Source of the DNA: Paraspadella gotoi
Lineage: Eukaryota > Animalia > Chaetognatha
DNA: 64,000 nt
Direction: 5' to 3'
NCBI GenBank assembly: GCA_051294375.1
Contig: CM119268.1
Coordinates: 14,529,396 to 14,593,395 of the forward strand
Part shown: positions 4,235-60,300 of the stretch, piece by piece
How positions within the stretch are numbered: the stretch's first letter is position 1
How the letters are laid out: each line of letters opens with the position of its first letter
Notes under the pieces: model-generated
Told to the model about the DNA's origin: nothing
The model's database searches: none
What the model saw: only the letters and a program-made list of their open reading frames with translations
Program-made: the position numbers and the translations under genes

Positions 4235-10055
<5,821 letters not shown>

Positions 10056-20293: not shown

Positions 20294-23111
20294 CTACGCC
20301 TGAGCCTGAGGACTCTGCCACAAGAAAGGAGCGACGACTCCGAACACGCAGACGAGAATTCCGAGGAGAGCAAACGCCTAAAAACATTCTCCAGTAACAT
20401 TATTGTGATTTGATTCTTCTCAACAATAACGAATCATAAATAACTTTAATCCCATAACAAATTATCCTCTCCACCCCATTCTTCTTCAGACTTTTAGATA
20501 TTTTGAATTTTCAATAAATGACTTCTTAACAAGAATGAGGTCTAATATCTAACTAGAAAACTAGGGAAGAAAGTAACTTTTAACCTTGTGTTGTATAGTT
20601 GCTTCCTCTATTTCCAGAAGACAACACTAACATCCCTCTCCCCATTACATTATAAAAGATTATACTTTACATAAAGATAATTAAATCTAATATATAGTGA
20701 TATTTATTAAATTTTTACAGTTATTTTTGAATTTTAATATAAAATTTTAAAGTCTAATATAGTAAAACAAGTATATAATTTACCACAACAAACCGCTAAG
20801 ACTTAAGTCAAGTAAGAGTCTTCTCTTAAAAGAGCTACAAAACAATAAAATAATTTTCAACCCTGACCATTGACTTTTACCATGGAAGCGATTCTGGCGG
20901 CGTGTTCGACGCCGTCGACGCCGAAGCAGACGACGCCGACGACGAGAAGAAAGGCGCTCACCGCGAAGAACTAAATGTCGTGAAAACAAAAACATATAGT
21001 AAATAATAGTAATTACTTATAAAGTCACAACAATTTTTAGCTTTTTGACTTAGTCTCGTCTTTCCTGCTAAGGAAATTAAACGCTGTTTTTTCAATTTTT
21101 TTTTAAATAATCCATATTAAATTTTTAATATATATATTTTTATACTTTTGATATAATTTTTATGTGTCTCACCAGGTAACTTTTCCCCGTGATGTCCGTC
21201 GAATTACAGCAGGTGGCAAGGAGGACGACGACGGAAAGCAAGATGGCGGCCACCAGCACGGCCTCGTAAGCGTGACCTAGACCTGACCGTGTCAAAGTCG
21301 ACGCTTTTAAAATCAATCGTTTGAAGTTTGAAATTTGCAATAAATAATGACGACGCTGTGGCAGCAAGACTTAAAGCGTCCTCAGCCTCGTCTCAATGGC
21401 TGAGCAGGCTAAATCATCTCATTCCATCCGTGCGTCCGGGTTCAATCCCGCGGTATCCCGGTTCTGGCTTAAATGTGACGGTGCGGTATAAACATCCAGT
21501 GACAGGAGGCGGTCACTGAGGGTCCGCAGCCCCTACGCCAGTTGGTGAGAAACCTCGCGCCCGGGTATCACAGGCTATTCTCCCGTTGCCATAAGTGGTG
21601 AGCCCTACTATCGAACACACGCAACCGCTGCGCACCGTGCGCCCGAGCTTACGTCGCTTAGAGTATGCATATCACGCCTATGCCCTACTTCTCTGGTAAC
21701 GCTCCAGACCTCGCTCGCTCGCCCGCTCGCTCTCACTATGGCAATGAGATCAAAACCTTCTCTCAGACATCTCCTCAGGATTGAGGCCCCTGTGGAGAAG
21801 TCTGGTGGGGGGATCCTGTGGCAGCAAGACTTAAAGCTGCCTCACTGCTGTCCGTCCTCAGCCTCGTCTCAATGGCTGAGCAGGCTAAATCATCTCATTC
21901 CATCCGTGCGTCCCGGGTTCAATCCCGGGTATCCCGGTTCTGGCTTAAATGTGACGGTGCCGGTAAAAAACATGCCAGTGACAGGAGGCGGTCACTGAGG
22001 GTCCGCAGCCCCTACGCCAGTTGGTGAGAAACCCCGCGCCCCGGGTATCAACGTCGCCCCGGGTATCACAGGCTATCCTCCCGTTGCCATAACGCTACCT
22101 GATCGATCGATCCTGCCGTGCTGTGGCGGTTGATACTCGTACATTGAGATGGCGAGAATACACGCGATCTGTAGAGTAAAAAAAATGTCACATCAAGTAT
22201 GGCTAATTTAGAATATAAATCTGAAAGCCTTTAACATTTTGTAGCTGTACTAAAGTGTCGTTAGTATTTATTGCCTTTTCATCGCTTTCGTCGAACATCC
22301 TTTTAGTGCAGGTATATGATGCCCTAATGTATCCTTTTTTTTTTTCAAATGTTTTCACATTCATGTCTGTGGAACTCGTTCCCACCAAAAGAATTTACGG
22401 AATTTCTCAATCGGAACGGCGACCGATTTGGATGTTAATTTATATCGTTTTAATTGCATACGGTTAGGCAATTAAACTGAGGGTAAAACGGTCCGCGGGG
22501 AACGCGCTCTGGAGTCGTAAATGTTTTCGGAGCAAATTGCATTTAGTCCACCTATCTTTCATGATTAAGAAACCTTTTTTTTTTTTATGACTAAATTAAG
22601 GGAAAAACGATGAATTAGAATTTCATGCGCATATTTCGTTATAGACAGACCTTCAGTTAGTCTTAGTAAATTTTAAAAAAAACCTAAAAGTTAAATTTGA
22701 TCTTTTCGGCGCATTCTCGTTCCGATCTCACTCAATCACTGCGACGACGCTGAAGCGCTGAGGTCGAATCTTTCTTCTCTACTCAATCGCTTCATATTTG
22801 CTTTCTTCTCTCTGACGAGTTTAACTTCGGAAGAAAAAGGATTTTGAACTTCGCTTTTTTTAGCCCCAAAATTTACTTCTTTTTTTTTTTCTTCGCCCAA
22901 AATTGTTGAAAATGTTTTAATACTTCTTAGTATCTCGCGCATTTATCTAATAATTACAGTTTAATTTCAAATTTTAATAAATACAGTAAGTGCTAATGAA
23001 AAAAAAAACATTCTTTCCAAAATGAAAAGTGGAAACCCATAAATATTATTAATCCGTTACCATGACGACGATGGAGATAATGGACATGATGCTGATGCGA
23101 ATCGTCGCCAT
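20294..23111 (-). CDS. Small four-TM membrane protein, paralog 3 (about 134 aa, 5 exons; extra intron splits exon 2)
   Basis: Exons 23111-23061 (MATIRISIMSIISIVVM), 22168-22099 (IACILAISMYEYQPPQHGRIDRS), 21282-21173 (GLGHAYEAVLVAAILLSVVVLLATCCNSTDITGKSYL; alternative in-frame AG 6 nt downstream), 20970-20881 (FFAVSAFLLVVGVVCFGVDGVEHAARIASM), 20377-20294 (AFALLGILVCVFGVVAPFLWQSPQAQA*). Confidence 0.83.
21464..21541 (+). ncRNA. Twister ribozyme (type P5 permutation) in the 5' LTR of element A; degenerate copy
   Basis: CTGGC-TTAA-ATGT-GA-CGG-TGCGGTA-TAA-ACAT-C-CAGTGAC..GTCACTG-AGGG-TCCGCAGC-CCCT-AC-GCCAG. The G of the GC pseudoknot dinucleotide and one P1 base are missing relative to the other LTR. 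Confidence 0.65.
21873..21926 (+). promoter_or_regulatory. Candidate Pol III type-2 internal promoter (A and B boxes) in the LTR of element A
   Basis: TGGCTGAGCAGG (A-box-like) about 43 nt upstream of GGTTCAATCCC (B-box-like). The same pair occurs in the 5' LTR at 21397 and 21439. Confidence 0.5.
21940..22020 (+). ncRNA. Twister ribozyme (type P5 permutation) in the 3' LTR of element A
   Basis: P5 CTGGC/GCCAG; P2 ATGT/ACAT; GA-CGG pairs with CCG of loop L4 (TCCGCAGC); GC after P2 pairs with GC of L4; P3 CAGTGAC/GTCACTG; P4 AGGG/CCCT. The UAA site reads as an A-run here. Confidence 0.7.
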
Positions 23112-25171: not shown

Positions 25172-27174
25172 TTATTTACAGACGAAAGGGGCGAGAGTCC
25201 CGGCGAGCGCAGCGATGAAGGCGATGCCGGCGAAAACCTGAAAACAAAAACAAAAGAAAAAGCATTTAGTTTCACTCGGCTACTTACGGAGCCTCGTTTC
25301 GACATTCATGATTTCATCACCAATCAGCTGAAAAACCAAAATTATCATTTTTCGTTCATCCCTGTTCATTCGTTCAACGTTCATTCCTGTTTGCGTTTTA
25401 ATCGACTCGATCCCAAATTATAAGAACAAAAAAAAATGAAGATTGAAAACAAAACAAAAGAGACGTTGCAATTGTGGTCGTGATTTAATTGGACGGTATG
25501 ACTGTCCGTGTTGAACTAGATATGTTAAGCTATTAAAGATTTTGATGTCCTGAAATGACTGTTAATATCTTTTAACTCATTAACATTTAAACAAAATAAA
25601 AAAAATTAAAACAACAATTAAAACATAAATTTGATTGCCTTGCCGCTCGAGGGAATCGAGGTTTGTGCTAATACCACCAATGATTTGTAACCGGATTTAC
25701 AAGATTAATGCGGCACCGCAGACATTTTGTTCAAAAGGCACGCACGATCCGAAGCAATCGCTCACGCAGCAGAAATCAGCAGTATGCAGCAGCACGTGGC
25801 AGCAACCAGCATTCGGCACGCTCTCTTGAGTGCAGCGACTCACGCAAGAGGCGATGAAGTAGTTCATCTTTTCTTGCAATGCATCCTTCACGGACTGCAT
25901 TGTCTGGGCGTCGATAATATTGGCGAGATCGTCCAGGACGAGAGCGAACAGGATGATTCCGATGATGAGAAGGATCGTCGATAACGCGTAGATCTTGAAA
26001 TGAGAAGCGGGAAGGGACGGAATAAATTAGGTTAGAATTGAATCGTTCGTAAATGAATCGAAAAAAAATGAGAGAGAAAGATCCGAGAGGAGAGAAAGTT
26101 GCAAGACACCCATTAACAGAGTGGCTTTTGCGGCTTACTTATTGGAACTTAGAAACAGGACTAAAAAATGCTTCCGGCCCATTACTATTTTGTAAAAAAA
26201 TAGATAAGAAAAGGGAAAATATAAAAAGAAAAAGAAAGAAAGAGAAGAAAAAAAAGGAAAAAAATTTAAAAAATTTAGAAAAAATACAAAAATAAAAAAT
26301 TAAAAGTAAAGAAATAAGAGAAAACTTAAAAAAAAGAAGAAAAAAAAGAAAAAGGAAATAGAGGAAATAAGAAAAAAAAGCCAAAAAAAAGACAAAAAGG
26401 AAAAAAAGAGAAAAAAGGAAAAAAAGAAAAAAAAAGAAAAAATAAAAAAAGAGAAAAAGAAAAGAAGAAAAAAATGATAAAAAATATGATAATAAGAAAA
26501 TAAGAAAAAAGGAAAAAAAAAAGAAGAAAAGAAAAAAGAAAAGAATGTAAATTGAAGGGGCAAGATTAATTTAAACGACGAGGTAATTGATTTAGAAGTT
26601 TACTTTAGTCATAGAGAACTTTTTCTGTTGATATTTTTTTAAACTCATTTGTTTTTCCTGTTATATCTTCTTCACCATCTCCATTTCACACTTCACCAAC
26701 TATTTCCCCCACCGATTCTTCCTCCTTCGAACTCCCGACCCCCCACCACAGCCGTACCAGGAACGTCTTCCCCGTGACGGCCTCCATGTCCCTGCAGGTG
26801 ACGACGAGTACGACCAACGCCAGAATAATGGCGATGATGACGAAAGCCTCGTATGTGTTGGCGTAGTCGCCGCGTTTGTCGCCAGGGGGTGCGGCTTCGT
26901 AGACCGCCACCGAGACGATGCCCGCCACCTGGAGTTAAGTTGGGAGGGGGACAGAGTGGGCGTGGCAACGTTTATTCTCGGAAATGACGAAAACGGAAAC
27001 TTTCATGGGAGCCAAAATCATTGGCGAATGGCTCCAGGTGGTATTTCCGCGTTTTTAAAAGGGATTATACTGTAAAATAAGACTTGAGAAAGATCGCGCC
27101 CAAAGCTGATTGTCAACTCTCACCATAATGATGACGGCAATGATGCTCATCACATTAATCTTCAATGTCGCCAT
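25172..27174 (-). CDS. Small four-TM membrane protein, paralog 4 (145 aa, 4 exons)
   Basis: Exons 27174-27124 (MATLKINVMSIIAVIIM), 26928-26758 (VAGIVSVAVYEAAPP...TYEAFVIIAIILALVVLVVTCRDMEAVTGKTFL), 25993-25844 (IYALSTILLIIGIILFALVLDD...YFIASC), 25237-25172 (VFAGIAFIAALAGTLAPFVCK*). Confidence 0.88.
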
Positions 27175-34842: not shown

Positions 34843-35738
34843 TGGTCTTTTCATACAATTGAAACATTCTTTGAAATATTTTCCACTTCATTGATAGGGA
34901 AGCAGGTACTCTGGGAGTGAATAAACGAGTCTGTGAAAGAGTCTTGATTGAAAGCTTGCAGGGACCTGCTATGTCATTATCTTGTAAGAGTGATGGAGGC
35001 CTTAAACCACCAAAGCCTGTCCAAAGTCAGGGGCAAATAGCTTATTTATTAAATGAATGGATAATTTTTATATTGGTTGTACCAATTTCATAAAATTCAG
35101 CTCCTTGTATTTTGATGCTAGTGCGGAGTACAATAAGTATTCCCGATCTAATATTTAAGGGAGTGGTCTTTTCATACAATTGAAACATTCTTTGAAATAT
35201 TTTCCACTTCATTGATAGGGAAGCCAGGTACTCTGGGAGTGAATAAACGAGTCTGTGAAAGAGTCTTGATTGAAAGCTTGCAGGGACCTGCTATGTCATT
35301 ATCTTGTAAGAGTGATGGAGGCCTTAAACCACCAAAGCCTGTCCAAAGTCAGGGGCAAGATAGCTTATTTATTAAATGAATGGATAATTTTTATATTGGT
35401 TGTACCAATTTCATAAAATTCAGCTCCTTGTATTTTGATGCTAGTGCGGAGTACAATAAGTATTCCCCGATCTAATATTTAAGGGAGTGGTCTTTTCATA
35501 CAATTGAAACATTCTTTGAAATATTTTCCACTTCATTGATAGGAAGCCAGGTACTCTGGGAATGAATAAACGAGTCTGTGAAAGAGTCTTGATTGAAAGC
35601 TTGCAGGGACCTGCTATGTCATTATCTTGTAAGAGTGAGGAGGCCTAAACCACCAAAGCCTGTCCAAAGTCAGGGGCAAGATAGCTTATTTATTAAATGA
35701 ATGGATAATTTTTATATTGGTTGTACCAATTTCATAAA
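34843..35738. repeat. Tandem repeat, about 322-bp unit x 2.8
   Basis: Units start at 34843, 35164 and 35488 (TGGTCTTTTCATACAATTG...). The array is absent from the duplicate copy near 46080. Confidence 0.9.
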
Positions 35739-35836
35739 CGGGGGTGACCTAATAACGAGTCTCGTTGGCGGGAAAACTGTCCAGTATGGCAACAGCCAGG
35801 TTGCCTGTGATGCCCATTGGGATGGGGCATCTCACT

Positions 35837-35917
35837 GTTGGCTTTGGGGGCTTCCGACCCTCAGTGACGCATCCAGTCACTGGCGCGGTTACCCTAGGAC
35901 GGTCTCGCTTTGCCAAC
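35837..35917 (-). ncRNA. Twister ribozyme (type P5 permutation) in the 3' LTR of element B
   Basis: GTTGGC-AAA-GCGA-GA-CCG-TCCTAGGG-TAA-CCGC-GC-CAGTGAC-TGGATGC-GTCACTG-AGGG-TCGGAAGC-CCCC-AAA-GCCAAC. The core is complete: UAA, GA, UNNNAAGC loop and both pseudoknots. Confidence 0.82.
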
Positions 35918-36234
35918 GCAGAGGGAAGTCGTTAGGACTGTGGATGGAACACTACGCCTGGGATGGTGTGTTCCCCCTCTGAGCCAATGGATTTGGCTGA
36001 CGGATGGTGGACGTGAGGCGGTGTGAATATACCGCCACAGGATCCCCGGGCCAAGACATCACTCAGGTTCCTCAAGCCTGAGAGGTGTCTGACAAGACTG
36101 TTACCATAGTGGGAGAGAGAGAGCGCGAGTTGTGGGGGCATAGGCGTTTGTCGTAGCGTACCCCAGGGGCATAGGCGTTTGTCGTAGCGTACCCGAAGTC
36201 GGCAGGGCATAGGCGTTTGTCGTAGCGTACCCTG

Positions 36235-36270
36235 AGAAGGTTGCGTGTTCGAATCACGTCGGGCTCACCA
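36235..36270 (-). promoter_or_regulatory. Extended primer-binding site complementary to the tRNA-Trp 3' half
   Basis: The + strand reads AGAAGGTTGCGTGTTCGAATCACGTCGGGCTCACCA, matching the variable loop, T-arm, acceptor strand and CCA of eukaryotic tRNA-Trp(CCA). It lies 2 nt from the 5' LTR end. Confidence 0.85.
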
Positions 36271-36324
36271 CTTATGGCAACAGCCAGGTTGCCTGTGATG
36301 CCCATTGGGATGGGGCATCTCACT

Positions 36325-36404
36325 GTTGGCTTTGGGGCTTCCGACCCTCAGTGACGCATCCAGTCACTGGCGCGGTTACCCTAGGACGGTCTCGCTTTGC
36401 CAAC
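36325..36404 (-). ncRNA. Twister ribozyme (type P5 permutation) in the 5' LTR of element B
   Basis: Identical to 35837-35917 except for one C after P4. Predicted U^A cleavage between 36378 and 36377. Confidence 0.82.
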
Positions 36405-37253
36405 GCAGAGGGAAGTCGTTAGGACTGTGGATGGAACACTACGCCTGGGACTGAAGAATATATTCCATTCTCGAACTTGTGAGTGTTCCCCCTCTTGAGG
36501 CTCAACTGGATTGGCCTCGACGAGATGGTGGACGTGAGGCGGTGTTAATATACCGCCACACCAGCTTCTTTCTCTCTCTCTCTCTCTCTTTCTTTCTCTC
36601 TCTCTCACTCATACTCGGATTTGTTTGTTTTATTTACGTTGAACGATTCATCGTGTCAATGAATGACTATCATCGCATCAATGAATGATTCTCATCATAT
36701 CAATGAATGACTATCATCGTATCAATCATTTGGTTATCATCGCATCAATCATTTGGTTATCATCCCATCAATTCATCAATCATCGCGTCAATTTTTTATC
36801 TTTTTTTATTTCTTTATTTCCTTCTCTCGTCAGGCGAGATCCTGTTCTTTTAAGATTTTTTTTTATTGTTCGGTGAGCTCATAAGAGAAAATTTTCTGAG
36901 CTTGAAATCGTACTGTTGTAAAACAGGCACAGAATAAGTGAGTCATGAATCCGTTTTTGTACTTAACTGTTATTTAAAACTTTTTTCCTTAGTTGAGTAT
37001 CTATAGCGGAGACTACAATCTTTTACTATTTTCTTCTCGATTTAATGTTCACCGAAGTTCGCAAAAATTTAATGTAAAGATACACTAGGAAAATAACAAA
37101 TAATTTATTTGAATTAGGTTATATTCAGTTATCCTTAACAATGAATCGAGAAAAATGGTGATTAAAATAATTTTAATTTTGAATTATTAAAATCGGCGAA
37201 AAGGAAAAAAAATAAAAAAGCTTTCATGGAACTTCATTCGGTATTGAGTCCCG

Positions 37254-54313: not shown

Positions 54314-57300
54314 TCAAATTAAAAGTTGCCAACAAATATTTGAGAAAGGACAGTGGTCAGATAAGTGAGGACAGCTTCAGTGAAGTTGTTTAAATAAAAT
54401 TAAAAACTCTCTACTTTGTAAACAAGATTCAATTCTAAAAGTTTATTCTTTAGTAAATTTATATTTTCCCCTAACGAAATTCACCTGAGAAGAGCGGCTT
54501 CGGCCCAGGCGCGTCCCCGTCGGCCCCCGACGTTTCCACGGCAACCGAACCCTCGTGCAGGTTGTTAATCTGATCGCTAACTCTATTAGGGTGGTTATTG
54601 CGGTCGGCCGCGGACTCGGCCAAAACAGGGACAGCAGTGGCGTTAATAGATATGGTGCCGATAGAGCGAGAAGCGGAAGAAGCCGCGGCGGCGGCGACGA
54701 GCCGTTGTTCATTTGTCGAAACACTGCGGTTAGTAGCGTCCCCGAACCGCGCGGCGGAGCTAGGGGTCTCGTTTGCCGAGTCCGACGAGCCGCGGCTCTC
54801 GTCGGATTGCAAAAGATCATCGCTTTCACCTGTATTCGGTTCGCTGGTGGGAACCTCGACCGTGGGTTCCGTGATTGGGGGAAGGTTGGGGATCAGGCAT
54901 TGATCCAGACCGACGTTGACGCGGGAACTGGGCGGCCCGACGGCAAAGTCGATGAATCTTGTCGGAAAGAGGTAATATTACTATCACGAGCCAAATTCAC
55001 CAAAGACTTTTACAAATTGTAATGCTTACTTGTCATTGATATTAACATCGGCCAAGCATCCCTTGAAACGTTTAGTGGTTGGAACGTTGTCGGGATTTAG
55101 CCGGTAGGACAAGGGCACGCCGCCGAAGTACATGGCCTTCGTCTTGATCTTTGGCTTTTGACGCAAGTCGACCTGATAGAATAAGAGGGAAAACGAGAAA
55201 AAATGATAAATCCCGTTAAAAATATAATTTCGGACTTAAATTAGGATATTAACCTCGATCTTGTCGTCCACTCGATCGTCGAACGTGACCGACAGCTTCT
55301 TCTTCCGCAGAGAGACGGTCACGTGATGCCAGAACCCATCGCTGAATCCCGCGCGAGCCGCTTCGCTGACGGTGGTGTCCACAGCGACGGAGCTGCCACG
55401 CGAAGGCTCTAGCACCACGTGGATTTGTCCGTCAACGAGACCGATGGCCAGAGACTGTTTTGAAAAGACGAATGGGTTAAAAAAAACAACCTCAATTTAA
55501 AACGAGAAGACGAGAGAAACAACTTCATTTCATCTACCTGATCTTGGTTCTCACTGGCGGAATAGACCAAGAGCCCGTCGTCCTCGACCGTGCGGAACTT
55601 GAAGCCAAAGTCGAAGCCGTTAAAGTCGCGCGGAGGCACCATCGCGATGTAGCCCTCGTCGCCGTGCTTCTTGAAGGTCGCTAGGGACACGTCCTGAGAG
55701 GTTAGCGAAATAAAGAAACATCGGTGAGGCAAAAGCTACATTATCGTACGAGTGGGACAAAAAAAGCATGCCGCGAAAATTAGCCAAACCAGTGTATGAT
55801 TTAACCTGTTACATTTAACTGTATTTAGAGAGAAAAATATCTTGGGTAAAGTCATTTTTACTGTTGGCGTTAATTCATCATAGCGAAAACAATAAAATAA
55901 AATAGTTCCCTTTATCCATTTTTATTGATAACGCGATCAATCATTAAAAATCCTGCAGAATCATCAAATTTTTAGCGGAAAACAGAGCGAAGAGTCTAGC
56001 AAATAACTCGCTACATGCTTTTAATATCCTCGGCGATATGAAGTACAATAAAAGCGGATTAAAAAAAAAACAATAACTTTCGCGTAATGCGGAGCGTTAA
56101 AAAATTTTCGCTCCAAAATGAAGCGACGGTTTAAAATCGTGCCAAGATAGTATCGTCGATACGGAAGAAGTTGGGACTGAGGTACTGAGGTAGCAGTAAA
56201 AGTGAAGTTTTGAGATAGAAAGATAGAGAGTAAAGATAAAGTGACAAAAATGCGGCGTGGATTAGTACCTAAGGGGAAAAAAGGCAAGGAAAGCTGCTCC
56301 GAGAAAAGCTTTATCTCTTTGAAAAGAAAATAGCCTTTCATAGAGAATGATTCAATTTTTCTTTACGTTTAGTTAGAGAAAAAAAACAAAGACTGCTGTC
56401 TTTCGCGATTTGGTGAAAATGGGGAGGGGGTTTCGTATCTCTCTCTCTCTCAGAGATGAAAAAGAGAAAAACGGGAATACGAAGAAAAATCGCTTCATTT
56501 CAATTTCTCAAAAAAAAAAAAAAAGACATGACAGGTCAAAACTTCCGTGACATGCCGTTTTAAGTATTCTCCGGAGATGTCATGCCAAACTCTCGTGGTT
56601 TGACATGACAAGTCATCAAACGCGGACGTACCGAGAAATGGGGCGCCACGCAATGGGCACCGGCTCTCATCCATTGCAATTGAGACACTTTTTTTTGTGT
56701 TCGTGTGTGCGTATTTTAAATGTGAAATTTTTGTTATGACACGAAAATCGAGTTATAAAGATTATTTTTCAATTGAACCAAAAAACTGTCAACGCGAGAA
56801 CGTCATCGTTAATATATGATAGAAACTGATGTTAGTGTTTGTATAACTACTCCGATTCTTGAATACATACGTACGTATACGGAAACATTATAACAACAAA
56901 CGGGGGAATAATAGAATAAGAAGAAACAAGTCGGTCTACTCACCATATTCATCACCCCCGACAACCCCCCCACGCTCCCAAAACTCCTCACCGAGAAGGA
57001 GCATCCCTCGATGATCCCGCGGGCCTCCTCGTTGTCCTTGAGCTTTCTCAACGCCGTCCCCAATATGACGCCCTGGATGCAACCGTGGAATCCGGCCGAC
57101 GTCACTTCCGGTCGCCGGTGATCCATCTTGACTCCGCCGATCATGACCTCGTCGGTGATGGAGAGTTCCTTCATGTTGCCGGGCGCCATGCCTGTCGCCT
57201 CTGCGGAATGAGCAAAACGAATTTATTCATTAGAAACTTTCTAAAAACTTTATTTTTACGTGAGTTAAACGAAGTTTATTCCGTAAATCTTTTAAAAAAA

Positions 57301-60300
57301 CAACCCAAATATTTAAAAAAATTTAAGTTAAAGGGGAAAACTAACTAGTAACGATTAGCATTTACGTTCGGTAATATTCTTTAATTGAGGCACTTTAACC
57401 ATATGGCCGAGCGAGAAACACCGAAAATTTGGGTTCAAAAAGGAGGCGAGCGCCTCGGAAACTGTTTTTTTCTCCTGCCGCTCGTGCGTGCATAAAAACT
57501 GGGCTGGGAGTAACCGTAAAAATCAGCGCACGTGCGCAACCTGCTGCACACCGGAGCAGCAACTTTTCAGGAGCGAACGGGATGTATTCTCGATCCCAAC
57601 TTATCTTTCGAGGGGTTAACCTTTGCCACCGTGGATCCTCGATATATGACCTCGAGGTCAATTTTTTTTATTTTCATAAAAAACCAAATGAATATCACTT
57701 GGGGATTAAAAAAAAAAATACATCGGATTCCGATTTCAAGTAAGAATCTGCAAAGCTCGCGATTCCCTTAAGAATCCAGACAAGTTATGGAGCCAACAAA
57801 AACTGTGTCCTTCATATAAAATGCAATGAAATCCCGCAAAACCGAATAAAAAATCTAGTGGTTCCCACTGGAATCCAAAGAAAATCCCCTCCCTCCAAAA
57901 ACAATCAAACCGAAACCTTTCAAGCATAAGCGTAGCACTCCACTATTCCCTACCCAGTGTACCCACTCCACTCCACTCCACTCCACTCCACTCCACTCCA
58001 CTCCACTCCACTCCACCTCCCAATAGAAAAAACACACAAATCCCCGCAAGGTTTTCTTTATTTCTTCTCATCGATTCAATTCTCGTTCCCAATCCCCTCA
58101 TCCGATTTCGTCAGTCGGAAGTCCTTCCAAGGTTTTTCTTTCTTTTTCTTTTTCTTTCCTTCTTCCATCTCGAACTCTTCTTTCTCTCATATGTTTTATC
58201 GTTTCCTAAGAGGTTTCTTCGTTTTTCTCTCCGAGCATCGCTTTTCATCCTCCTTTGACTTCCGCGTTCTTCCCTTTCATGAGAGTTTCTTTTTATCCCC
58301 ATTCTTTCCTTTTTTTCCCTCTCTCCTTTTCTTTCCTTTTTGTCTCTCCATTCTTTTCAAAAAAGTTTCAGTCTTTTCAAGCTTATCTCCTTTCACCCGC
58401 AAACCACCATTGTCGTCGTCCTTTTTAAAAAATATTTCCTTTCCTCACATTTTTTTTTGGGGGGGGCGGAGACACATTCTAATATCTTTTTTTTTTCTCA
58501 CTCTTTTATCCACATCATAATCAACGAAAATCTATATTCGAGCGAGAGGCACGTTTTTTTCTTTCGATCTTCCTTTTTCTCCTTTTTTCTCACCGAAAAC
58601 TTAAATCCCCGGCACGTGATAGCAAAAGCTTAACCTCAGACAATGCTTTTTATATCTTAAATCTCTCATCAGGGGCGGAAAAAAAAACCCAAGAAATGTC
58701 GGTCTAAAAAAGGTTAAAACTCTCCCCGGCCTCTCCCCCAAACAAACCACCTTACCCAACTGGTTGTCCACGTGAAGGATTCCAGATTTTTCCCTCCGCT
58801 TAAACTTGACCGAATGCCATTCCCCGTCGTTGAACTTTTTGCCCGCTTTGGGAGAAAGGGTCGCAACTCCTGATCCCAAGTCGTACTGATACAGCAGAGA
58901 TCCGTTCTCCATGGAGAGAGACATGAAGTCTCGCTGTTGGGGGAGAGGGGAATTTTTTTCGCGTGGGGGGTTGAGGTGGAGGAGTTTGGGGGGGGGGTAG
59001 TAGGCGTCCGTGGAGACGAAGAAAGGGAGGAAAGTGAAAGAGGAAAGATGATACATGCGGGTGACGTTCGTTGGAGGAGATCGAAAGAGATTTTATCGGA
59101 AAAGAAAAGGAAAATAGAAGGGAAGGCATGGATAAAGAAGATAGAAAGGAAATAGAAAAAAGGGGGGAAAATAGGAAAGAAGGGAAGGGGGGAAGAGGGA
59201 AAGGTGTAAAAGTTAAAAGAAAACGAAGGAAAAAAATGGAAGGAATGCGAAAGAATTGGAGGGCAAGGAAGGAAAGTGAAAAAGTTCAACAGCGGGACAC
59301 GAGTAAAAAAAAAATATGAAAAGAATAGGGAAAGTAACAAAAAGATGGAATCGGGGTTGAGAAAGTCGATCGGGTGAGGGCCGGGGAAAGGAACAAAATA
59401 TGAATTGAGAATTAAATATTAAGGCGGGCCAAAATGTAAAACTTTTTATAATGAGGAATAATCCAAAATTCTTTTCTCTTTTGATTTTTACTATCATTTT
59501 TTAACTGGTATAACATTGAAGCATTTAATTATTTATCAAAATTTTATTATCTTTAAGGGATACTCTAACATTATTTATATTACAAAACTCTTAGTTTTTA
59601 CTTTGTTCTGCCTTATTGAATATCCGATTCCCTTTTTATATAAAACAAAATGGGGAAAATGAAACTTAGGTCTTTTTCAATATTGTTTTTAAATTTTCAC
59701 AAGATTGACGTCACATTTGATTTAAACATACAGTTGTTTCCCTTTTTCATTTAAATTTATTTTTCTCTGGATGTCGATAATAACATTATGGGGTGTGTGT
59801 GCTATCTTTTTTATATCGTGATCCTTGTTCTATTTTCATAAAGAATTCATTTTTTGAAAAGCTTTTAAAATAAAACCTACTTAAAACACTATGGTGCACT
59901 ATTCCTCTAGATTTTAAAAAATTAGACGAAAAACAAAAGTCCAATTTGTTTTTCGCTAAGACTATAAAAACAAAAAACAAATTAATTCATAAATCAAACA
60001 AAATCGCCTCCTAGTGGGATCCCGAGAGACGTAACAAATGTTCTATTAATATTTTCTATAGGTAAAAAGGGGAAACCACAACAAACCATAAAATAAAAAA
60101 AGAGCAAACGAAGGGGGACATGTTGGAAAAAGGGGGAAAATGTGCTTCTCGGAAGGTGAATTTGGTTCTCGAAATAAAATCGGTCTGGCACAGTTAATCT
60201 TCAAAGTTGGCGAGTGAAATGTCATTTTTCACCGAGTGTGCGATGAAAACTTAACAAAAAAAAAAAAAATAGGGTCGGAGCAGTTTGAATATCGGCACCA

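Follow-up and report, generated by a model that had tools for sequence, protein, structure and literature searches.

The element and its long terminal repeats

We analysed a 64,000-nucleotide stretch of the genome of the chaetognath Paraspadella gotoi (GenBank assembly GCA_051294375.1, contig CM119268.1, positions 14,529,396 to 14,593,395; this whole stretch is referred to as the window, and positions are counted within it). At 21357-22091 on the plus strand it contains a 735-bp non-coding element with two direct long terminal repeats (LTRs), named here element A, which lies antisense in an intron of a host gene. Being shorter than 1 kb, with a primer binding site (PBS), a polypurine tract (PPT), a target site duplication (TSD) and no protein, element A matches the definition of a miniature terminal-repeat retrotransposon (TRIM); the sole open reading frame of at least 110 aa inside it had no Pfam match. 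The LTRs start with TGTGGC (21357 and 21817), end with GCCATA (at 21593 and 22091) and enclose an internal part (21594-21816), with the PBS sequence TGGTGAGCCC at 21596 and GGGGATCC at 21809, ahead of the 3ʹ LTR. An initial annotation, made from the sequence, had described these LTR ends, the ACGC TSD and both internal sequences, and its coordinates were exact. The features of A and of its relative, element B, are as follows (Pol III, RNA polymerase III):

21353-21356 (+): left TSD, ACGC (sequence; empty site in record 17 of run X5)
21357-21593 (+): 5ʹ LTR, 237 bp, TGT...ATA (LTR alignment)
21397-21408 (+): Pol III A-box, no mismatches (pattern scan)
21440-21448 (+): Pol III B-box, no mismatches, 43 nt past the A-box (pattern scan)
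21464-21541 (+): twister copy of the 5ʹ LTR, P5 permutation, predicted cut 21489/21490
21490-21966 (+): predicted unit RNA from one cut site to the other, 477 nt with 57% GC (circular fold)
21545-21571 (+): GTGA..TCAC hairpin by the LTR end (sequence; forms in the fold of B)
21581-21596 (+): LTR end and PBS start, U5-leader-like stem with 21734-21749 (pairing comparison with B)
21596-21613 (+): PBS of tRNA-Trp type, degenerate past base 10 in A (tRNA-Trp comparison)
21674-21685 (+): ACGCCTATGCCC motif, candidate packaging hairpin (fold; A/B comparison)
21734-21749 (+): internal antisense copy of the LTR-end/PBS junction (fold; A/B comparison)
21807-21816 (+): short G-rich PPT and TCC spacer (sequence)
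21817-22091 (+): 3ʹ LTR, 275 bp, 19-nt internal duplication near 22040-22058 (LTR alignment)
21820-21841 (+): 5ʹ LTR hairpin GGCAG/CTGCC (compared with B, four pairs the same and one double change)
21873-21925 (+): A-box (21873) and B-box (21917) of the 3ʹ LTR, 44 nt apart (1/5000 shuffles)
21940-22020 (+): twister copy of the 3ʹ LTR, predicted cut after 21966 (descriptor, no mismatched pairs; A/B comparison)
22092-22095 (+): right TSD, ACGC (sequence)
35785-36560 (-): element B, sister subfamily, TSD CTGG (blastn, nhmmer, E 8e-34)

The two LTRs of A are three substitutions and seven gap events apart, and 16 nt of the 3ʹ LTR are missing from the 5ʹ LTR. For this reason the hairpin GGCAG/CTGCC is limited in A to the 3ʹ LTR, while the other hairpins named in the initial annotation are present as described. 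A long hairpin with a TTGAGG loop, common to A (21762-21806) and B, stands just before the PPT.

Element B, 13.7 kb away, was the only relative of A found within the window by blastn and nhmmer. It is 776 nt long, with LTRs at 36273-36560 and 35785-36039 (-), twisters at about 36326-36404 and 35838-35917 (-) and a unit RNA of 487 nt. The LTRs of A and B are 60-63% identical over all columns (75-81% excluding gap columns), in line with the two diverged subfamilies of low primary identity proposed earlier. Inside each element the LTR pair is 98.7-98.8% identical excluding gap columns, the pair of B being three substitutions and ten gap events apart. The 5ʹ LTR of B has about 33 extra bases (36440-36530, -) not seen in its 3ʹ LTR. 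At 36470-36499 the depth was 0 in all four runs compared, which is absence of cover and not proof of an error in the insert; the extra bases are probably an assembly error. Beside B lies a 323-bp tandem repeat (34843-35783), which has an inverted piece at 356-415; its summed depth is very high in run X9 as well as in the DNA runs.

A permuted twister motif in the LTRs

To describe the motif we built a twister descriptor from fields of Table 1 of Liu 2021 (PMC8501958) and from a review (PMC5408937). The motif follows the permutation opened at P5, in the order P5, P2ʹ, GA, T1ʹ, P1, NAA, P2, GC, P3, P4/L4, P5ʹ. The descriptor matched three of the four LTRs, i.e. the 3ʹ LTR of A (no mismatched pairs) and both LTRs of B (two mismatched pairs each), and nothing else in the window; it missed the 5ʹ LTR of A as assembled. 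In the three matching LTRs the P2 and P4 stems, the NAA and GA of L1, the L4 loop and the pseudoknots T1 and T2 were all present. No match was obtained in 150 shuffles of the window (19.2 Mb) or in 10,000 shuffles of the element (15.1 Mb).

The comparison of the two subfamilies provided further evidence. Among the 26 twister pairs, 17 are the same in A and B, six are changed on both sides, one on a single side, and two are broken. One of the double changes falls in pseudoknot T1, a pairing that plain folding does not predict. The rough binomial chance of the compensated changes is 1e-6 to 5e-5, for two lineages and an assumed divergence. The initial annotation had reported covariation in the hairpins including P3 and P4; we located it in P5, P2, T1 and P1. 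In P3 all seven pairs are identical, and in P4 one pair is broken with no compensated change. Preserved across the A/B split are the catalytic G-A, the AA that follows the cut site, the GC pairs of T2 and T1 itself. The descriptor matches and the paired changes together bear out the earlier proposal of a twister in an LTR element under selection on RNA structure. In the contigs matching B, variants of at least 5% within 35838-35917 are confined to loop L3, with eight in the 122 nt upstream.

No hammerhead core was found in the element on either strand, including the minus strand, nor by Rfam. Pattern scans in other collections returned chance matches: all 15 loci in metagenome contigs (WD40-repeat and bacterial genes, judged by eye) and the single locus in genome contigs (bacterial); viral contigs gave no locus.

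Defects at the locus and the sequence of other copies

The stretch is contained in ten public runs, all as contigs and none on record as RNA; contigs were compared from four of the ten runs for A and four of the ten for B, five different runs overall. At 21966 a T was read in 96-99.7% of the summed depth (113,929/114,228 in X1, 84,956/87,096 in X4, 35,081/35,385 in X5 and 2,190/2,279 in X9), and at 21967 one A fewer in 43-96% (49,422/114,259, 57,771/87,779, 18,112/35,411 and 2,188/2,279, respectively). Together these two readings give the motif GGTA-TAA-ACAT-GC, whose restoration the initial annotation had wished to see checked, and most copies keep both the UAA and the GC dinucleotide. Sequenced copies are mostly free of the defect seen in the 3ʹ LTR of the window, and the family has kept the twister motif.

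The 5ʹ LTR twister of A as assembled lacks one C of P1 in addition to the G of the T2 dinucleotide. This version fits almost no contig best (the depth at 21482-21496 is 6-188, with other letters throughout). Between duplicated stretches of the window (2.3-3.3 kb) one-base gaps number 37 and 41, and substitutions 29 and 10, respectively; this excess of gaps points to unpolished long reads. Small defects are present, as had been noted, and had been ascribed to decay or long-read error; of the two, assembly error is likelier than private decay, although at this single locus either may apply. The near-identical duplicated blocks (38699-41980/48148-51406 and 31041-33400/42364-44700), which include C2H2 zinc-finger genes, may represent a recent duplication or haplotypes left uncollapsed in an unpolished assembly.

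A palindromic P1

In both subfamilies a self-complementary 8-mer lies between T1ʹ and the cut site, with different letters in each, UGCCGGUA and UCCUAGGG (21958-21965 in the 3ʹ LTR of A). Each 8-mer pairs with itself at about -11 kcal/mol and forms no hairpin alone; forcing it into a 2-bp hairpin costs +5.0 and +2.7. The innermost P1 pair is doubly changed between A and B although it is unable to form in cis, and the chance for the inner P1 pairs is about 0.4-1.6%. Amphibian hammerheads with a minimal stem and a palindromic tetraloop cut best as dimers (PMC7229834). By analogy, we put forward the hypothesis that the P1 palindrome gates cleavage through pairing of two RNAs; alternatively, it may serve as a dimer or packaging site.

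Putative promoter, priming and other RNA structure

General A-box and B-box patterns were used, and the Helenus box cores were taken from Kojima 2024 (PMC10886601). Perfect pairs of an A-box and a B-box occur twice in the 64 kb on either strand, both times in the LTRs of A (1/5000 shuffles). When compared with the Helenus cores, A has TRGCY and GGTTC at tRNA spacing, with YGG reading AGG, and B has one mismatch per box. With the extra T that 27-52% of the depth has behind 21926, the B-box is enclosed in a complete tRNA-like T-arm. The sense strands of A (735 nt) and B (776 nt) are free of TTT, as were 213/3000 and 112/3000 shuffles (7% and 4%). Because of the boxes and the absence of T-runs, transcription of the element by Pol III is likely.

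The PBS was compared with tRNA-Trp and with Gypsy-32_NVi, and the comparison counts in favour of the retrozyme reading discussed below. In B, 18 of 19 PBS bases are complementary to honeybee tRNA-Trp (Fig. S2 of PMC10886601), and the antisense of this PBS folds as a T-arm ending in CCA. Most copies, as well as A, keep the first ten PBS bases and then diverge; the PBS of B in the window therefore looks as if it had been refreshed from the primer, which fits tRNA-primed reverse transcription. The tRNA-Trp-like complement in B extends to 36 nt (36235-36270, -). Its tRNA-exact letter at 36260 is in the minority, the other letter being read in 6,629/9,189 (X1), 16,940/17,974 (X5) and 4,321/4,349 (X9) of the depth, as if primer-refreshed copies were rarely the source of new RNA.

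The 13-bp stem between the LTR end and the internal antisense copy has, in comparison with B, three double changes, two single changes, one broken pair and seven pairs the same. The hairpin ending in ACGCCTATGCCC, a candidate packaging signal, occurs three times in B (36216, 36178 and 36147, -) and once in A (21674, +). Folded as circles, the A unit (477 nt) has a z-score of -2.5 and the B unit (487 nt) one of -3.5, with none of 60 shuffles as stable in either case; on the minus strand the values are -0.9 (A) and -2.5 (B). The initial annotation did not include the boxes for Pol III, the palindrome in P1, the stem joining LTR end and leader, or the tRNA-Trp type of the PBS.

Mobility and abundance

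An empty site was found in record 17 of run X5 (401 nt, depth 11.3), which joins 21352 to 22092. It covers 22092-22261 and 21150-21352 in one piece, with exactly the element and one TSD missing (735+4 nt). The start of the A-type LTR was joined to unlike flanks in 43, 41, 30 and 6 contigs of X1, X4, X5 and X9, and that of the B-type LTR in 93 and 77 contigs of X1 and X5; these counts are lower bounds on the number of insertion sites. The summed depth lay 10^3-10^5 above the flanks, a value not taken as copy number, and B-type sequence was several-fold commoner than A-type in the run contigs. Both subfamilies are dispersed and multi-copy, and the dozens of other insertion junctions agree with the abundance suggested earlier; the many further copies answer the doubt, raised along with it, that no others might exist. 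The family had also been called old. This holds for the A/B split, but each subfamily is young, given the near-identical LTR pairs and the polymorphic insertion.

The flanks of other LTR copies are AT-rich, with TA or AT beside the LTR and a low agreement (0.4-0.5); the TSDs in the window, ACGC and CTGG, are unlike them. Run X10, which is labelled as another organism, has two contigs on window positions 36185-36450 (depth 6 and 2.5), one of them B-like (four other letters and four gaps in 264 nt) and one running into A-like internal sequence. These may reflect kinship, transfer or contamination, which look alike here.

A proposed retrozyme-like life cycle and its alternatives

We propose that A and B are TRIMs whose LTR twisters make them work as LTR retrozymes, with a Pol III start, a unit of 477-487 nt, a circle and a Gypsy-type helper, along the lines of the model for plant retrozymes (PMC4918200). 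Transcription would start about 7 nt before the A-box of the 5ʹ LTR and read through to a genomic T-run, the first T4 being at 22237. The twisters would then cut in both LTRs, the R repeat would be lost and a unit of 477-487 nt released, matching the monomer of about 477 nt predicted earlier for A. The unit would be ligated to a circle, copied from a tRNA-Trp primer and integrated with a 4-bp TSD by the Gypsy-type helper. We give this reading a probability of roughly 0.55.

A number of observations weigh against it. The covariation is based on two lineages, and the free minimum free energy folds of the 111-nt motif are unexceptional (z -0.6 and -1.4). Rfam gave no match at gathering score in the 64-kb window and none for A at E<=10. 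Positions 11-56 of the twister-P1 model (RF03160) match both B LTRs weakly (16.1 and 14.2 bits), the better being far from the gathering score of 67.2, and there was no twister-P5 match; the motif is permuted and bears both P3 and P5. In L4, A has C where all seven rows of Table 1 of Liu 2021 read A (an A-A pair) and B has A; B has a C-A at the base of P2 and an A-C in P4. These letters of L4, P2 and P4 are the common ones in the contigs, with no variant row. The 5ʹ LTR of A as assembled lacks the T2 G equivalent to G13. P1 is dispensable for cleavage by the env22 twister (PMC5408937), which weakens dimer gating and leaves it at the level of a hypothesis. The boxes in the 3ʹ LTR of B are 36 nt apart with one mismatch each (172/5000 shuffles), and the pair was not found in the 5ʹ LTR of B as assembled. 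Within the window no helper element was found. Finally, the ratio of X9 to X1 element depth is about 0.1 for B and 0.02 for A, not above that of an unrelated neighbouring repeat (0.12), and in X9 contigs LTRs are embedded in long host transcripts. Expression cannot be ranked by contig depth, nor can contigs reveal a circle, whose junction equals LTR sequence; the X9 depth neither supports nor excludes an abundant circle.

In the most serious alternative, which we consider possible though clearly less probable, the active twister would form the 3ʹ end of a linear Pol III RNA, mostly the copy in the 3ʹ LTR cutting and that in the 5ʹ LTR being slow, so that a 101-103-nt R repeat would be retained and no circle made. 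From the presumed start, 7 nt ahead of the A-box, A has 101 nt to the cut and B 103 nt despite the differing box spacing; AATAAA is absent outside the twister, the element lacks a T-run terminator, and a weak P1 in cis would yield partial cleavage, all of which suit such an RNA. The same ribozyme is, however, present in both LTRs, and a silent 5ʹ copy would require a special fold; after two cuts the unit ends would rebuild the twister at the junction, favouring ligation, and plant LTR retrozymes of similar layout make circles (PMC4918200).

A somewhat less probable alternative accepts an active element but has it transcribed by RNA polymerase II (Pol II), or passively within host transcripts, the A- and B-boxes being a relic of a captured tRNA or short interspersed element and the twisters freeing the unit from whatever read-through RNA contains it. 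X9 contigs with LTR ends in records of 2-6 kb, the imperfect boxes of the commoner subfamily B and a TATA at position 9 of the B LTR could be read in this way. However, A has perfect boxes at tRNA spacing, and TTT is absent from both sense strands.

It is rather unlikely that the twister-derived motif no longer cuts and persists in an ordinary TRIM as a structural signal, e.g. a palindromic loop for dimer initiation or packaging. Both subfamilies deviate from the consensus, at 1-2 places each, the Rfam cut-off was not reached, and the palindrome would fit a kissing-loop role, as palindromes have in retroviruses. On the other hand, the catalytic G-A, AA, T2 GC and T1 are kept across a 60-63% split, T1 with a double change. 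In the rice twister G13, G30, A46 and G48 alone tolerate no substitution, while P1, P2 and P4 often tolerate a single mismatch (PMC5113685). The equivalents of all four are present in the 3ʹ LTR of A and both LTRs of B, and the L4 A is outside this set. That the pattern is a chance or assembly artefact, as the indel-rich assembly and the missing Rfam gathering match might suggest, is very improbable in view of the absence of descriptor matches in 34 Mb of shuffles, the cleaner motif read in the public runs and the compensatory changes between A and B.

Relation to known elements

With plant LTR retrozymes (PMC4918200) the element shares a non-coding body, a pair of LTRs with a self-cleaving motif each (here a predicted one, intact as assembled in three of four LTRs), a PBS, a PPT, a 4-bp TSD, a GC content above 55%, a structured unit RNA and a presumed Gypsy helper. 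It differs in its animal host, the P5-opened twister in place of their type III hammerhead, the tRNA-Trp instead of tRNA-Met PBS, the Pol III boxes, and a unit of 477-487 nt against 600-1000, its circle being a prediction. The element has the layout of an LTR retrozyme and, as far as its sequence tells, would work like one, but it falls outside the class as defined (type III hammerhead, tRNA-Met PBS).

Helenus/TRIMp3 elements (Kojima 2024, PMC10886601) are TRIMs with A- and B-boxes in the LTR, the cores of which are matched in part here, and similarly have 4-bp TSDs in animals, tRNA-Trp among the wasp primers and a short G-rich PPT. Here, in contrast, the boxes lie in the 5ʹ half of the LTR and are followed by the twister, whereas the Helenus LTRs examined end the tRNA-like part in a T-run and have no twister core; the main text of Kojima 2024, in its available part, names a ribozyme in a reference alone. 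We rejected membership of Helenus, as ARAGORN found no tRNA gene and a motif search found no twister-core or LTR-end motif shared with the available part of Data S1.

Metazoan non-LTR retrozymes (PMC7229834; bioRxiv 10.64898/2026.07.22.740005) are similar in being animal and in their ribozyme-delimited unit RNA, and the palindromic-tetraloop hammerheads of amphibians, cutting best as dimers, resemble the P1 proposed here (PMC7229834). They differ in being arranged as tandem repeats, with hammerheads of type I and no LTR, PBS or PPT, and in relying on Penelope-like elements. Schistosoma Perere-3 (Liu 2021, PMC8501958) also has a twister in an animal retrotransposon, with extra A's and any pre-cut base tolerated, but there an autonomous non-LTR element carries a single twister copy, of type P1, at its 5ʹ end, and a circle is not involved. 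The harvester-ant element PbTRIM (Zhou and Cahan 2012, PMC3532108), compared by description only, is an animal TRIM of 480-781 bp with a 4-bp TSD, solo LTRs, AT-rich targets and intron insertions; unlike the element described here, it has a tRNA-Leu PBS and 152-184-bp LTRs, and no ribozyme is reported in the available text.

In the published scheme the LTR retrozymes belong to plants and use hammerheads of type III, and those of animals consist of tandem repeats bearing hammerheads of type I. As far as their available texts go, PMC7761336, PMC6765202, PMC7229834, bioRxiv 10.1101/2022.07.19.500677, PMC13725137 and PMC11722881 associate LTR retrozymes with plants and with hammerheads, and place animal twisters in non-LTR elements; LTR retrozymes are "primarily" plant according to bioRxiv 10.64898/2026.07.22.740005, and unpublished type III hammerheads in insects are mentioned in PMC7761336. 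Full-text literature searches, beyond whose scope lie most subscription papers, the list of eukaryotic twisters of Roth 2014, bioRxiv supplements, Repbase and Dfam, yielded neither a twister-bearing LTR element nor an LTR retrozyme from an animal. Those sources may thus contain the element or its twister with the link undrawn. What is new, at the level of sequence, is a putative retrozyme variant combining TRIMp3-like boxes with a P5-permuted twister. More tentatively, it might be the first LTR retrozyme from an animal and also the first to use a twister, driven by Pol III, cutting efficiently only when its two LTR copies pair via the palindromic P1, with a stable, viroid-sized circle as the template for reverse transcriptase that is perhaps also copied from RNA to RNA.

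If so, the strategy of a ribozyme in the LTR and a circle as template would have arisen again, with another ribozyme class and promoter type, eukaryotic twisters would gain a second role in retrotransposons, and a naturally dimer-gated twister would be new to ribozyme biochemistry. The family would offer a high-copy, recently active system in which to ask if circles take over from the R repeat during strand transfer. It also suggests that screens relying on Rfam overlook permuted twisters present in annotated TRIMs.

Host gene and neighbourhood

The following features surround the insertion:

20297-23111 (-): host gene of five exons (23061-23111, 22099-22168, 21173-21282, 20881-20970 and 20297-20377), encoding a small hydrophobic protein (exon models)
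21283-22098 (-): host intron with element A in antisense, 816 nt filled and 77 nt empty

The host exon at 21173-21280 matched no Pfam family; of the paralog exons, two had no Pfam match and the third had a FAM176 match below threshold. The insertion had been placed in antisense at intron position +4. The orientation is as stated, but +4 to +7 are the TSD and the element begins at +8; the donor context is preserved as claimed, with +1 to +7 unchanged. Run X9 covers 21173-21280 and the sequence up to about 22169 at an equal depth of 9.16, with nothing in the intron flank; since its cover is limited to exons, X9 looks like RNA. This is consistent with splicing at this donor, whichever genotype X9 carries at the site. 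Two pyrimidine-AG sites on the host-sense strand (21790 and 21802) could act as cryptic acceptors.

In the paralogs at 8096-8284 (-) and 26758-26928 (-) the exons that flank the insertion form one continuous exon. The 77-nt intron with its weak GTAGCG donor is peculiar to the host paralog, which points to its gain in this paralog or its loss from the others. A laminin-G-domain gene of neurexin/laminin-like type has exons at 56812-59092 (-), and these, together with the C2H2 zinc-finger exons of the window, indicate an animal host.

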